The notes beneath the pieces were generated by a model, which had not been told where the DNA came from, did no database searches, and saw nothing but the letters and a program-made list of their open reading frames with translations. 64,000 nucleotides of DNA, from positions 8,081 through 72,080 of the forward strand of contig JABHXF010000034.1 in NCBI GenBank assembly GCA_018657385.1. Reading direction: 5' to 3'. Source of the DNA: Candidatus Woesearchaeota archaeon (GTDB lineage Archaea; Nanobdellota; Nanobdellia; Woesearchaeales; DSVV01). The translations under genes were made by a program, and so were the position numbers. Positions 47,461 to 51,101 of this stretch are shown one piece after another. Numbering within the stretch: the first letter of the stretch is position 1; every line of letters starts with the position of its first letter.

Positions 47461-49551
47461 ATGGAACAGAAAAAAATAATTTGGTTGTCTGCCAACAAAT
47501 TCGGATATGAAATGCTAAAAGAAGCAATTAACTTAGGAATTAAAGTAGATGCAATCATTACATTAAAAGAAAATACTAAAACAATTATGTATGATGGTAT
47601 TGATAATAAAAAATGGCAAGATTTTGGAATCAAAGTCCATTACATAGAAAGAATAAATAATGAAATTGAGTTGTTAAAAGAAATATCTCCAGATATAATA
47701 ATGATGTGTGGTTGGAGACAAATTATTGATAAGGAAGTAATAGACCTGCCAAGAAATGGAATGATTGGTTTTCATCCTACATTATTACCAAAAGGAAGAG
47801 GACCTGCTCCATTAATTAATTCAATTATGAATGGATTTAAAGAATCAGGTATTACAATGTTCTATGTTTCTGAAGGTATTGACACAGGAGACATAGTTGG
47901 TCAAGAACCATTTATTATTGAAGAAAATGATCATGTATCTGATGTTTATGAAAAATCAACAAATGCTGCAAGAATGTTAATTAGAAAATACATGCCAATG
48001 TTAGTGAATGTTAATGGTGATGTTGGTAATAATTTTAATAATAATAATAATAATAATAATAATAATAATAATAATAATAATAATAATAATAATAATAATA
48101 ATAATAATAATAATAATAATAATAATGCACCACGAATTAAACAAGACGAAAGTAAAGCAACTATTTTTGAGAAAAGAAGTTTAAAAGATAATAAAATTGA
48201 TCTTGAAACTGAAAATATAGATGAGATTTACAAAAAAATAAGAGCATTGTCTAAACCATACAAAGGAGCATATATAGAAAAAGATGGTAAAAAACTAATA
48301 ATATGGAATGCTGAATTAGTTGAAGATAAAATTAGTAATTGTATTAATTCAATGACAAAAAATAAGGTAAGTGATAAAATGATTTATGAAAATAATATGA
48401 ATAAAAAAAGAAAGATCTGTGTATTAACTGGAACAAGAGCTGAATTTGGTGTTATGAGACCTACAATTAAAATGATTCAAGATGATCCAAATTTAGAATT
48501 ATCACTTATTGCTACTGGAATGCATTTATCTGAAGAGTTTGGAATGAGTATTAATGAAATTAAAAAAGAAGGGTTTGAGATAACTGAAACTGTTGAAATG
48601 GATCCAAAAGAAGATAGTAATTTATCAATGGCAAAAGGTGTAGGACAAGGCACAATAAAGATTGCAGAAGCACTTGATAGAATTAAACCAGACATATTCT
48701 TAATTGTGGGAGATAGAACAGAAGCATTAGCAGGTGCAATTGCTGCTGCATACATGAATGTAATTATTGCTCATGTGAGTGGAGGAGATATTTCTAGAGC
48801 AGGACTAGATGAATCAGTTAGACATGCTATAACTAAATTATCCCATATTCATTTCCCAACTAATGCTGAAAGTGGAAAAAGACTTATTAAATTAGGAGAA
48901 GATGAATGGAGAATTCACTTAGCAGGTGCCCCTTGTTTAGACGTAATTCTAAAACAAGATTTTTATGATAAAAAAGAAATTGAAGAAAAGTTTAAATTAG
49001 ACTTAGAAAAACCATATTTTGTTGTACTACAACATTCAATAACAACTGAACCTGAAAAAGCCGAAGAACAAATAACTGAAACATTAGAAGCAATTAAAGA
49101 ACTAGAAACACAAACAGTTGTTATTTATCCTAACTCAGATTCAGGAGGAAGAAAGATAATTCAAAAGATAAAAGAGTATGAACAATTACCATTTGTAAAA
49201 GCATATGTTAATCTACCTCAAAAAGAATATTATAGTTTATTAAGAAATACTAGTGCGTTAATAGGTAATTCAAGTAGTGGAGTAATAGAATCTGCTTCAT
49301 TTAATCTGCCTGTTGTAAATATAGGTATAAGACAAGAAGACAGAGCTAGATCCAATAATGTTGTTGATTGTAAACATAATAAAGAAGAAATAATTAATTG
49401 TATAAAAAAAGTTATGTCTGATGAATTTAAAGAAACATTAAAAGATTGTAAAAGTGTATATGGAGAGGGAAATACTGCAAAAAAGATAGTTGATATAATC
49501 TCAAGAGTTGAATTAAACAAAAACCTGCTTCAAAAAAAGAATGCATATTGA
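47461..49551 (+). CDS. fusion of a formyltransferase (Fmt/ArnA-N-like) with a hydrolysing UDP-N-acetylglucosamine 2-epimerase (NeuC-like), joined by an about 30-residue poly-Asn linker
   Basis: N-terminal part DIIMMCGWRQII...GMIGFHPTLLPKGRGPAPLINSIMNGFKESGITMFYVSEGIDTGDIVGQ (formyl_trans_N). C-terminal part KICVLTGTRAEFGVMRP...GMHLS...IFLIVGDRTEALAGA...HVSGGD (NeuC / epimerase_2). Confidence 0.7.
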   Translation: MEQKKIIWLSANKFGYEMLKEAINLGIKVDAIITLKENTKTIMYDGIDNKKWQDFGIKVHYIERINNEIELLKEISPDIIMMCGWRQIIDKEVIDLPRNGMIGFHPTLLPKGRGPAPLINSIMNGFKESGITMFYVSEGIDTGDIVGQEPFIIEENDHVSDVYEKSTNAARMLIRKYMPMLVNVNGDVGNNFNNNNNNNNNNNNNNNNNNNNNNNNNNNNNNAPRIKQDESKATIFEKRSLKDNKIDLETENIDEIYKKIRALSKPYKGAYIEKDGKKLIIWNAELVEDKISNCINSMTKNKVSDKMIYENNMNKKRKICVLTGTRAEFGVMRPTIKMIQDDPNLELSLIATGMHLSEEFGMSINEIKKEGFEITETVEMDPKEDSNLSMAKGVGQGTIKIAEALDRIKPDIFLIVGDRTEALAGAIAAAYMNVIIAHVSGGDISRAGLDESVRHAITKLSHIHFPTNAESGKRLIKLGEDEWRIHLAGAPCLDVILKQDFYDKKEIEEKFKLDLEKPYFVVLQHSITTEPEKAEEQITETLEAIKELETQTVVIYPNSDSGGRKIIQKIKEYEQLPFVKAYVNLPQKEYYSLLRNTSALIGNSSSGVIESASFNLPVVNIGIRQEDRARSNNVVDCKHNKEEIINCIKKVMSDEFKETLKDCKSVYGEGNTAKKIVDIISRVELNKNLLQKKNAY
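48037..48126 (+). repeat. (AAT)30 trinucleotide microsatellite encoding the poly-Asn linker inside the formyltransferase-NeuC fusion. A shorter (AAT)11 tract sits at 45501-45535 inside the NeuA-NeuB fusion.
   Basis: Perfect AAT repeats are visible in the sequence at 48037-48126. Confidence 0.95.
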
Positions 49552-51101
49552 TTATAGGTAAATCATGCATGTATATTAATTATAATAACAAAAAAACAAA
49601 AATGAAACAAGAACAAAGAAACAGATTATTAGAAGAAAGAAATAATTTAGATACTGATTTTGTTAGTGAAAAGAGTAAAATAATCAACATTAAAATTCTT
49701 GAGTTGAATGAGTTAAATAATGCCAGAAATATTGGAATATATTATCCTAAAGATTGTGAAGTTGATACTAAAGAATTAATTAAAAAGTTAATTGAAAATG
49801 GAAAAAATGTGTTTTTGCCAAAAGTTATAAAAAATAATGATAAAGACATAGATAATGATGAAATGGAATTCAAAGAAATAAAAAACTTTGAAGAACTTGT
49901 TTATGGAGAGTATGGTATAAAAGAACCTAGTGAAAATTCGAGAAAAATAAATGCTGAAGAAATAGATGTATTAATTATGCCTTGTGTTGGAGTTGACACA
50001 AAAGGCAATAGAATTGGTAGAGGAAAAGGGTATTATGACAAATATCTTGAAAGTGTAAGCAAAGCAAAGAAGATTTGTGTTGCATATGATTTTCAAATTA
50101 TAGATAATGAAATAGAAAAAGAAGCACATGATAAAAAAGTAGATATAATAATTACAGAAAGTAAAATAATTACAACTGATGAAATAATTAATTCAAACGC
50201 ATTTAAATTATTAGATGGAAAAAAGTTAGCAGATCAAATTAATGAAAAAGTTAAGCAAGAAATTAATTCATATTCTAATAAAGAATTAATAAAAGTTCCT
50301 AAGCTAGTTGCTATAATTGTAGGAGAAGATCCTGCATCAAAATTATATGTTAGAATAAAAGGAGAAAAATGTAAAGAAGTTGGAATTAATTTTGAAAAAT
50401 TGAGTTATTCTGAAGAGATGGATGAAAATGAATTAATAAATGAAATAGAAAAACTAAACAATGAAAAAGAAGTAACTGGAATAATGATACAATTGCCTTT
50501 ACCAAAACATCTAGACAAAGAAAAAATAATTAATAAAATTAGTGTTAAAAAAGATATTGATGGCCTTACTCAAGAAAACAGAATATTACTTTCTCAAGGA
50601 GATGAAAGCTTAGCATGCTGTGCCCCAAAAGGGATTATGAGGTTATTAGATGAAAATAATATTGAGCTTAAAGGAAAAAATATAGTTGTTCTAGGAAAAG
50701 GATATCTAGTTGGTTATCCATTTATATTAATGTTAAAAAATAGAAATCTTGATTTTACAGTATGTGATTGTAATACGCAAAACATACAAGAATTTACTAG
50801 AAAGGCAGATATATTAATAACAGCAACAGGAAATGCTCACTTAATTAAATCAAATGACATAAAAGAAGGTGTAGTGATTATTGATGCAGGATGTGCAAAA
50901 GTAGGAGGATGTGTTGTTGGAGATGTAGATTTTGAAGATGTGAAAAATAAATCATCTTACATAACACCTATAATTGGTGGTGTTGGACCTGTAACAGTTG
51001 CTATATTGATGGAAAACATATTAACTGCACATAAAAATTCATTCATAAGAGAAACAAAAGAAATCAATGAAACAAATCAGAGGAATGAAGAAGATGACTA
51101 A
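49548..51101 (+). CDS. fusion of 5-formyltetrahydrofolate cyclo-ligase (MTHFS) and bifunctional methylene-THF dehydrogenase/methenyl-THF cyclohydrolase (FolD)
   Basis: MTHFS part IDVLIMPCVGVDTKGNRIGRGKGYYDKYL. FolD part LVAIIVGEDPASKLYVRIKGEKCKEVGI...GIMIQLPLPKHLDKEKIINKISVKKDIDG...PIIGGVGPVTVAILMEN. It overlaps the upstream gene by 4 nt. Confidence 0.75.
   Translation: MIIGKSCMYINYNNKKTKMKQEQRNRLLEERNNLDTDFVSEKSKIINIKILELNELNNARNIGIYYPKDCEVDTKELIKKLIENGKNVFLPKVIKNNDKDIDNDEMEFKEIKNFEELVYGEYGIKEPSENSRKINAEEIDVLIMPCVGVDTKGNRIGRGKGYYDKYLESVSKAKKICVAYDFQIIDNEIEKEAHDKKVDIIITESKIITTDEIINSNAFKLLDGKKLADQINEKVKQEINSYSNKELIKVPKLVAIIVGEDPASKLYVRIKGEKCKEVGINFEKLSYSEEMDENELINEIEKLNNEKEVTGIMIQLPLPKHLDKEKIINKISVKKDIDGLTQENRILLSQGDESLACCAPKGIMRLLDENNIELKGKNIVVLGKGYLVGYPFILMLKNRNLDFTVCDCNTQNIQEFTRKADILITATGNAHLIKSNDIKEGVVIIDAGCAKVGGCVVGDVDFEDVKNKSSYITPIIGGVGPVTVAILMENILTAHKNSFIRETKEINETNQRNEEDD

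Follow-up and report, generated by a model that had tools for sequence, protein, structure and literature searches.

Two adjacent fusion genes bring a putative sugar N-formyltransferase, and the folate enzymes that could supply it, into one cluster for nonulosonic acid synthesis in a Candidatus Woesearchaeota archaeon (contig JABHXF010000034.1; the whole 64-kb stretch analysed is called the window). The first gene joins a formyltransferase (FT) domain to a UDP-sugar 2-epimerase, and the second joins MTHFS, the cyclo-ligase of 5-formyl-tetrahydrofolate (5-formyl-THF), to FolD. Both lie inside a long same-strand glycan cluster that holds homologues of all six legionaminic acid enzymes (LegB, LegC, LegH, LegG, LegI, and LegF) together with a PIG-L de-N-acetylase. 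We consider it likely, with a probability of about 0.7, that the cluster encodes the core of a legionaminic-type (5,7-diamino) nonulosonic acid pathway in which one amine is N-formylated by an FT domain of a type here called GxH, with the formyl donor coming from the MTHFS-FolD protein encoded next door.

The domain assignments of the original prediction, which was made from the DNA letters without database searches, were borne out by Pfam and NCBIfam profiles. In the first gene product, Formyl_trans_N covers aa 69-170 (76.8 bits; cutoff 26.1), Formyl_trans_C aa 242-292 (28.7 bits; cutoff 21.1), and a full-length Epimerase_2 domain aa 338-680 (E = 1e-83). The FT domain aligns with the structures of ArnA (E = 1.7e-26), FMT (E = 1.5e-25), and PseJ (E = 2e-12). 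The epimerase part (aa 317-680) reaches 449.8 bits against the NeuC_NnaA equivalog TIGR03568 (cutoff 235.9), compared with 106.7 bits for the non-hydrolysing WecB model (cutoff 210.15); by these scores it is a predicted hydrolysing NeuC/LegG. An independent assembly (L001; ENA ERZ27245994, a 282-kb contig) repeats these genes in unchanged order with 99.95% identity at the DNA level, and the sole difference from the window is a 63-nt length change in a poly-Asn tract between the two FT subdomains. The tract forms a linker of variable length within the enzyme, and poly-Asn runs of lesser length (45486-45535) also join domains of the 899-aa gene upstream. The search for homologous fusions in other genomes, proposed with the prediction, returned a 52% identical FT-NeuC protein from a third sample (P0122). 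In 48 loci FT and NeuC are encoded by neighbouring but separate genes, and they are fused solely in the window's species and P0122, so the window carries a rare fusion of a very common gene pair.

In the second gene, MTHFS and both FolD domains lie in one open reading frame ending at 51101. The prediction that this is a single gene stood, with no stop or frameshift between the parts and with the second assembly in agreement. The MTHFS part matches the TIGR02727 equivalog (166.9 bits vs 84.9) over the full profile (positions 1-182 of 182), and solved structures of MTHFS (PDB 2jcb and 1sou) can be aligned with it over its whole length. In the FolD part, the catalytic Lys that was to be checked is found in YVRIK (K271 of the 517-aa reading frame; 50358-50360), followed by QLPLP (50490-50504) and DIDG (D-x-D-G; 50553-50564). 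The YxxxK Lys, QLPLP, and D-x-D-G are invariant over 18 fusion homologues. The two genes had been described as overlapping, a claim that rested on a purely mechanical TTG start at 49548. In the second assembly the gene is called from ATG 49569, and the alignment of all homologues begins with the Met encoded at 49602. Both positions lie past the stop codon of the first gene (49549-49551), hence the true start is probably one of these two and the genes probably do not overlap.

The dinucleotide site of the fused FolD is atypical. It has GKG (50694-50702) for the usual G-R/A-S and VCDCNT (50760-50777) for x-C-H-S/R-x-T, and the best NCBIfam FolD equivalog gives 303 bits, under its cutoff of 437. 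At the dinucleotide position His occurs in 74 of 77 standalone FolDs and Asp in none (0/77), whereas the fusion clade of the window has Asp or Asn. The FolDs of sugar-cluster fusions (L003-L007 and L166-L170) likewise show G-x-G where standalone enzymes mostly have G-R-S. Acidic residues here usually accompany the use of NAD over NADP, and the residue pattern suggests that the fusion-clade FolD has switched to NAD or has a changed dehydrogenase function.

The active site of the FT domain departs from the expected Asn-His-Asp triad, on which the original prediction had made its assignment depend. His105 (47773-47775) and Asp141 (47881-47883) are in place, and the catalytic Asn is replaced by Gly103 (47767-47769); the equivalent residues are N102/H104/D140 in ArnA, N108 in FMT, and N106/H108/D144 in PurN. 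The surrounding motif, IGFHPTLLP, keeps the H-x-S/T-L-L-P folate-loop motif as HPTLLP. The replacement is the state of a subfamily. Among the closest relatives with a readable motif, gathered by an exhaustive search of 1.84 billion representatives, Gly occupies the Asn position in 111 of 131 and Asn in 8; P0121 and P0122 have Gly there. Across the subfamily alignment, His105, Asp141, and HPTLLPxGRG at the folate site do not vary. Judged by its aligned residues, GxH is a large formyltransferase subfamily without the residue held to be catalytic. Our literature search on mutagenesis of this Asn returned an indirect statement only. For PurN, a review on how archaea make purines gives His108 and Asp144 as catalytic (PMC3261824), and the loss of the Asn therefore weakens the case for formyl transfer while leaving it possible.

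GxH enzymes are mostly encoded among genes for nonulosonic acid synthesis. A metagenome scan with the GxH alignment yielded 80 loci, which were screened by tblastn with the window proteins; counts refer to the 45 loci of at least 5 kb. PIG-L was found in 43 of them, almost always directly adjacent to the FT gene, NeuB in 37, NeuC in 36 (usually immediately downstream of the FT), a cytidylyltransferase in 33, and DegT in 32. Folate genes were less frequent (FolD 8/45, MTHFS 4/45, and SHMT 3/45); the FolD count exceeds an assumed background of ~2% (binomial p ~3e-6). The same deacetylase and formyltransferase cassette is present in the window, where the gene directly ahead of FT-NeuC ends in a PIG-L domain. 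Multi-domain relatives tie the FT to the same partners, as FolD+FT(GxH) in P0361 and L108, FT+MTHFS in P0390, and FT(GxH)+PIG-L in P0426 and P0473. In the cultured haloarchaeon Halorussus caseinilyticus, neuC-PIG-L-neuB adjoins a GxH gene, and a second, canonical NxH formyltransferase is present. The GxH gene is annotated there as a methionyl-tRNA formyltransferase. Archaea do not formylate initiator tRNA, and the label is therefore very likely wrong. A second, shorter FT-like family (~235 aa, Formyl_trans_C_2, motif V-F-H-M-T-D-L-P, likewise without the Asn) replaces the GxH enzyme in Babeliales-type clusters.

The N-terminal domain of the first gene might instead not be a formyltransferase. 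It could transfer another group, carry out other one-carbon (C1) chemistry on the amine freed by PIG-L (e.g., with 5,10-methenyl-THF), or serve NeuC as a binding domain or scaffold. Gly103 in place of a conserved Asn, its spread through the whole subfamily, and the extra canonical NxH FT beside the GxH gene in L007, Halorussus, and L147, which hints at different jobs, all fit this explanation. However, the strong conservation of the His, Asp, and HPTLLPxGRG motif, and the PurN precedent for His and Asp as catalytic residues, speak for a working FT site, while the FolD fusion in P0361 and the adjacency of MTHFS/FolD point to a folate C1 donor. In addition, the GxH gene is the only FT in most cassettes, and the sole organism with chemistry from a deacetylase and FT Leg-like cluster has a formyl group. 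We regard a non-formylating domain as unlikely.

Fusions of MTHFS and FolD recur, and they recur beside sugar genes. A protein search returned ~18 proteins that combine the two, with either domain first and in some cases with a C-terminal PHP domain. The analysis of gene context covered 13 distinct loci, with the window and L001 taken as one. A scan of GTDB species representatives with an 8-sequence fusion alignment, in which the window's species is not represented, added two fused loci only (L006 and L007; the genes are separate in L029), on short contigs of doubtful binning. The context is amino-sugar or formyltransferase genes in 12 of the 13 loci and purine genes in one, and nearly all of them have a gene of the formyltransferase family no more than 10 kb away. 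By comparison, none of 78 standalone FolD loci has NeuB, NeuA, NeuC, or DegT in its flanks (12/13 vs 0/78; Fisher p ~4e-14, with control lengths that vary and detection that mixes tblastn with precomputed Pfam hits). The predicted placement of a formyl-donor supply next to a sugar FT in a nonulosonic acid cluster is strongly supported by recurrent co-location and by FolD-FT, MTHFS-FolD-SHMT, SHMT-FolD, and FT-MTHFS fusions. Further folate-enzyme fusions in sugar clusters are SHMT-FolD (L111 4915-7041) and MTHFS-FolD with a C-terminal PHP phosphoesterase (P0002, P0004, and P0005).

A housekeeping role is the other explanation for the second gene, which would then be an ordinary folate enzyme for purine, thymidylate, or amino acid synthesis that lies in a glycan cluster by chance. 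In L169 the same fusion sits in a purine operon by PurN and PurH, so the fusion per se is not sugar-specific, and no second FolD is demonstrable from the 64-kb window. A folate-based C1 loop within a glycan cluster had been called unusual, especially in an archaeon, but folate enzymes as such are not odd among DPANN archaea: some Woesearchaeota are reported to have general folate C1 metabolism (PMC5994134), and DPANN metagenome-assembled genomes (MAGs) contain standalone FolD genes. Nevertheless, chance placement accords poorly with the 12 of 13 loci found beside sugar FT or amino-sugar genes in varied gene orders across archaea and bacteria, or with the direct FolD-GxH FT fusions. The fused FolDs (CD or CN at the dinucleotide site) also differ from standalone Woesearchaeota FolDs, which are canonical there (CHSKT), and even the L169 fusion adjoins its formyl-consuming enzymes. 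We therefore find a housekeeping role improbable. That one or both fusions are assembly or frameshift artefacts of neighbouring genes can practically be dismissed: FT and NeuC are separate in 48 related loci, and MTHFS and FolD in L090, L161, and L088, but two independent assemblies repeat the fusions in identical reading frames, a third sample holds the 52% identical FT-NeuC, and MTHFS/FolD fusions with either domain first number more than 15 in other samples.

We infer the substrates, the formyl position, the cofactor preference, and the C1 source from this gene content. The dehydratase and DegT would make a UDP-4-amino sugar, the PglD/NeuD-like enzyme would acylate its 4-amine (the future N7), PIG-L would take off the original N-acetyl group (the future N5), and the FT domain would re-acylate the future N5 with formyl. 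NeuC, NeuB, and NeuA would then complete a CMP-Leg5Fo7Ac(yl)-type sugar, as in Halorubrum sp. PV6, where 5-N-formyl-legionaminic acid comes from a legG-formyltransferase-neuD cluster (Zaretsky et al. 2018, PMC6137143). Alternatively, the FT domain would formylate the 4-amine (N7) and PIG-L would free N5 later. N5 formylation is the preferred order because PIG-L and FT are tightly paired and at times fused, because a PglD/NeuD-like enzyme is available for the 4-amine, and because the Halorubrum product is 5-N-formylated. The N7 route would fit too, given that most cassettes lack a NeuD-like gene and given the FT-NeuC order. In Candidatus Kuenenia stuttgartiensis, a Leg-like cluster with a deacetylase and a formyltransferase yields CMP-nonulosonates in which one amine is formylated and the other is free (SugarBase preprint, bioRxiv 10.64898/2026.04.20.719630), and this chemistry fits either route.

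For the formyl donor, the FolD part would convert 5,10-methylene-THF via 5,10-methenyl-THF to 10-formyl-THF, the MTHFS part would bring 5-formyl-THF into the same methenyl pool at the expense of ATP, and the FT domain would pass the formyl group to the sugar amine. The two genes had been said to contain everything needed to regenerate 10-formyl-THF, which goes too far. What a formyltransferase sets free is THF and not 5-formyl-THF, and SHMT or formate-THF ligase is required to load THF again. The C1 unit would come from SHMT (with serine as source) or an equivalent encoded elsewhere in the genome, and relatives place SHMT, FolC, and a YhhQ/Vut_1-type transporter within the module. 5-Formyl-THF is a by-product and inhibitor of SHMT and a dead end, and also a stable form of folate. 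The MTHFS part most plausibly recycles 5-formyl-THF, which a dependent organism could import. The YhhQ/Vut_1-family membrane protein (TIGR00697 'queuosine precursor transporter', 172.9 bits) directly adjoins FolC and SHMT in three folate modules and is a candidate importer of folate or folinate rather than of preQ.

Several points weigh against N-formylation supplied by the neighbouring gene. The FT domain lacks the canonical oxyanion Asn, we know of no GxH member that has been assayed, and Halorussus carries an NxH enzyme besides its GxH gene. The 64-kb window contains no SHMT, Fhs, or FolC gene, so the C1 source is unseen in it. With only this window in view, the fused FolD could be the cell's sole, general-purpose FolD, and its dehydrogenase activity and cofactor are uncertain given Asp for a near-universal His and GKG for GRS. 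The likeness to Halorubrum and Kuenenia is one of cluster content and may not extend to the GxH type of the FT.

A wider proposal is possible but doubtful. A portable folate cassette (YhhQ/Vut_1 transporter, FolC, SHMT, and MTHFS-FolD with an NAD-type site) may exist in DPANN archaea and Babeliales-like reduced-genome symbionts and travel with glycan clusters across archaea and bacteria. In at least some hosts it might serve mainly the N-formylation of surface sugars, feeding a mechanistically distinct FT branch that works without the oxyanion Asn.

The host is, by its protein matches, a Woesearchaeota-like DPANN archaeon, as had been predicted in the case of its archaeal nature. The class-I LysRS (23790-25541) has best matches uniformly among Woesearchaeota and Nanoarchaeia, with up to 81% identity to a named Woesearchaeota protein, and the same cluster order recurs in a Nanoarchaeia MAG (L166). 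A bacterial origin of the window, suspected from a long RelA/SpoT protein and HAMP/GAF histidine kinases, is ruled out by the same two observations. The G+C content is ~26%, and Rfam and tRNA scans of the whole window gave no matches. The RelA/SpoT homologue (14029-15927, minus strand) is full-length and long (HD_4, RelA_SpoT, TGS, and ACT) in an otherwise Woesearchaeota-like window. Long RSH enzymes are typically bacterial or plastid, and the gene may be a horizontal acquisition. At 25579-30628 (minus strand), a response regulator adjoins two bacterial-style sensor histidine kinases (double GAF; HAMP+PAS) in this DPANN genome.

The features of the glycan cluster and of comparable loci are collected in Table 1. 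The 5' part of the cluster holds a flippase, the B12-radical-SAM enzyme, a CotH/VTC block, a capsule-synthesis-like transferase, and an AsnC regulator, and the order then runs from the 899-aa triple fusion through FT-NeuC and MTHFS-FolD to the PglD/NeuD-like acyltransferase. Beyond it lie genes for a phosphopantetheinyl transferase, an acyl carrier protein (ACP), an AMP-ligase, an Fe-alcohol dehydrogenase (Fe-ADH), LuxE, and LuxC, and then DegT and the CBS-dehydratase/epimerase. The NeuB domain of the triple fusion scores 408 bits against TIGR03569 (cutoff 399.65), with the PseI model under its cutoff, and its PIG-L domain has both the HPDDE and HKDH motifs. The acyl-carrier block probably builds a second, unusual N-acyl group; its content suggests that the second nitrogen of the sugar receives a substituent delivered by ACP, possibly a hydroxy- or amino-acyl group. 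One possibility for the radical-SAM enzyme is C-methylation of the sugar or of an acyl group. A conserved block directly ahead of the sugar genes (37248-41470), also present in L001, encodes a DUF4956 protein, a CotH-kinase-like protein of 913 aa, and a protein with a VTC domain.

Table 1. Features of the window and of loci used for comparison (FT, formyltransferase; coordinates within each sequence).
Sequence	Coordinates	Strand	Feature	Support or context
Window	34719-36158		B12-binding radical-SAM enzyme	Same type in 22/45 GxH-FT loci
Window	42386-44617	+	Capsule_synth/Epimerase_2-like transferase and AsnC-type regulator, cluster head	Same pair heads syntenic Nanoarchaeia cluster L166
Window	44702-47401	+	Triple fusion: predicted CMP-nonulosonate cytidylyltransferase (NeuA/LegF-like, aa 9-231), NeuB/LegI synthase with SAF (aa 297-636), PIG-L de-N-acetylase (aa 688-808)	Pfam, NCBIfam
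Window	47461-49551	+	FT-NeuC fusion gene, 696 aa	Pfam, NCBIfam; same fusion in L001 and P0122
Window	47461-48360	+	FMT/ArnA-like FT domain, N and C subdomains, GxH subfamily	Alignment to ArnA and FMT structures
Window	48037-48126	+	In-frame poly-Asn (AAT) microsatellite between the two FT subdomains	30 Asn; 9 Asn in L001
Window	48409-49500	+	Predicted hydrolysing UDP-sugar 2-epimerase domain (NeuC/LegG)	TIGR03568
Window	49569-51101	+	MTHFS-FolD fusion gene, 510 aa from ATG 49569	L001 start call; homologues align from ATG 49602
Window	49605-50159	+	MTHFS domain	PF01812, 151.6 bits; GRGKGYYD (G-x-G-x-G-Y-Y-D motif) at 50016-50039
Window	50211-51038	+	FolD dehydrogenase/cyclohydrolase domains	128.5 and 172.1 bits (two Pfam domains)
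Window	51067-51801	+	NeuD/PglD-like left-handed-helix N-acyltransferase, candidate LegH step	PglD_N; TIGR03570, 148 bits, slightly under cutoff 160.8
Window	51881-57894	+	Acyl-carrier block: phosphopantetheinyl transferase, ACP, AMP-dependent ligase, Fe-alcohol dehydrogenase, LuxE, LuxC	Pfam
Window	58024-59175	+	DegT-type sugar aminotransferase, LegC-like	PF01041, E = 7e-105
Window	61940-63328	+	CBS pair and NAD-dependent sugar dehydratase/epimerase, LegB-like	Profile matches
L003			MTHFS/FolD fusion	SHMT upstream; NeuB, NeuA, DegT downstream
L004			MTHFS/FolD fusion	Followed by SHMT, FolC, YhhQ/Vut_1 transporter; within NeuB/NeuA cluster
L004	14000-14632		YhhQ/Vut_1 gene	
L005, L167, L170			MTHFS/FolD fusions	Babeliales-type clusters: NeuB, PIG-L, GNAT, short FT-like protein
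L005	12102-12812		Short FT-like gene	
L006			MTHFS/FolD fusion	2.9-kb contig with FT-like gene as only neighbour
L006	2140-2862		Short FT-like gene	
L007	3513-6131		MTHFS-FolD-SHMT triple fusion, 872 aa	DegT, two FT genes, FolC, transporter
L007	7443-8090		YhhQ/Vut_1 gene	
L088	about 11207-11839		YhhQ/Vut_1 gene	
L092			FolD-MTHFS fusion	Immediately upstream of FT-NeuC genes
L108	9182-10747		FolD-FT(GxH) fusion	
L166			MTHFS-FolD fusion	Nanoarchaeia MAG: NeuA-NeuB-PIG-L-FT-NeuC-(MTHFS-FolD), window's order but unfused
L167	4470-5168		Short FT-like gene	
L168			MTHFS/FolD fusion	dTDP-sugar isomerase, DegT, FT, SHMT, FolC
L169			MTHFS/FolD fusion	Purine operon next to PurN and PurH
L170	6322-7017		Short FT-like gene	
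L171 (Halorussus caseinilyticus plasmid NZ_CP119810.1)	353195-354139		GxH gene annotated 'methionyl-tRNA formyltransferase'	Between neuB/PIG-L/neuC and canonical formyltransferase
P0018			MTHFS/FolD fusion	Arn-like cluster: GT2, FT, PMT_2, DegT

N-formyl nonulosonates are already known, as are clusters with an FT (PseJ and Halorubrum) or with a deacetylase and an FT (Kuenenia). Our literature searches on an MTHFS-FolD fusion or on folate genes in nonulosonate clusters found nothing relevant. In the searchable literature, the recurrence of folate C1 genes within nonulosonate clusters, the family of MTHFS/FolD fusions and its variants with SHMT, FT, or PHP parts, the nonulosonate-associated FT as an Asn-less GxH branch, and the FT-NeuC and NeuA-NeuB-PIG-L fusions all appear to be undescribed. 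N-formylated nonulosonic acids alter cell-surface charge and recognition, and in Halorubrum they are determinants of virus and host recognition. A formyl-donor supply within the sugar cluster would explain such sugars in organisms of minimal metabolism, and an MTHFS/FolD gene by PIG-L and a GxH formyltransferase would be a simple genomic marker predicting N-formyl glycans in uncultured lineages. A large uncharacterised FT subfamily without the supposedly catalytic residue, and a FolD clade with an altered cofactor site, are thereby defined.

The closest archaeal parallel is Halorubrum sp. PV6 (Kandiba et al. 2012; Zaretsky et al. 2018), which also has the Leg set (LegB, C, H, G, I, and F) and a predicted FT gene directly by legG (NeuC) and neuD. 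In Halorubrum the N-formyl nonulosonate was demonstrated chemically. The Halorubrum genes are separate, with no FT-NeuC fusion and no embedded MTHFS/FolD reported, and the host is a free-living haloarchaeon, unlike the DPANN host of the window. Haloarchaea have a full folate metabolism. The Kuenenia cluster resembles the window in its deacetylase and formyltransferase embedded among legB/C/F, neuB, and legG homologues. It is bacterial, no folate-supply genes or fusions are described in it, and the window goes beyond it in having a PglD/NeuD-like acyltransferase and an ACP-based acyl block.

Among characterised enzymes, PseJ of Anoxybacillus kamchatkensis (PDB 6ci2/6ci4), ArnA, WlaRD, and VioF/FdtF have the Formyl_trans_N fold and the His/Asp residues in common with the window FT. 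They carry out 10-formyl-THF-dependent N-formylation of nucleotide-linked amino sugars, PseJ in the pseudaminic acid pathway. The aligned ArnA and FMT sequences keep the Asn of the triad, whereas the window domain has Gly. To our knowledge, other characterised sugar N-formyltransferases also have this Asn, and we know of none that is fused to NeuC or has its own FolD/MTHFS. On the folate side, bacterial FolD, eukaryotic C1-THF synthase, and halobacterial PurN-PurH1 likewise fuse consecutive folate activities, and the Lys, Gln, and Asp motifs of FolD are conserved. Unlike those enzymes, the combination of MTHFS with FolD, with either domain first and at times with SHMT or PHP added, was seen in our searches only in a few dozen metagenomic proteins and belongs to glycan clusters instead of central metabolism, and the window-type fusion has the His-to-Asp/Asn change at the dinucleotide site.

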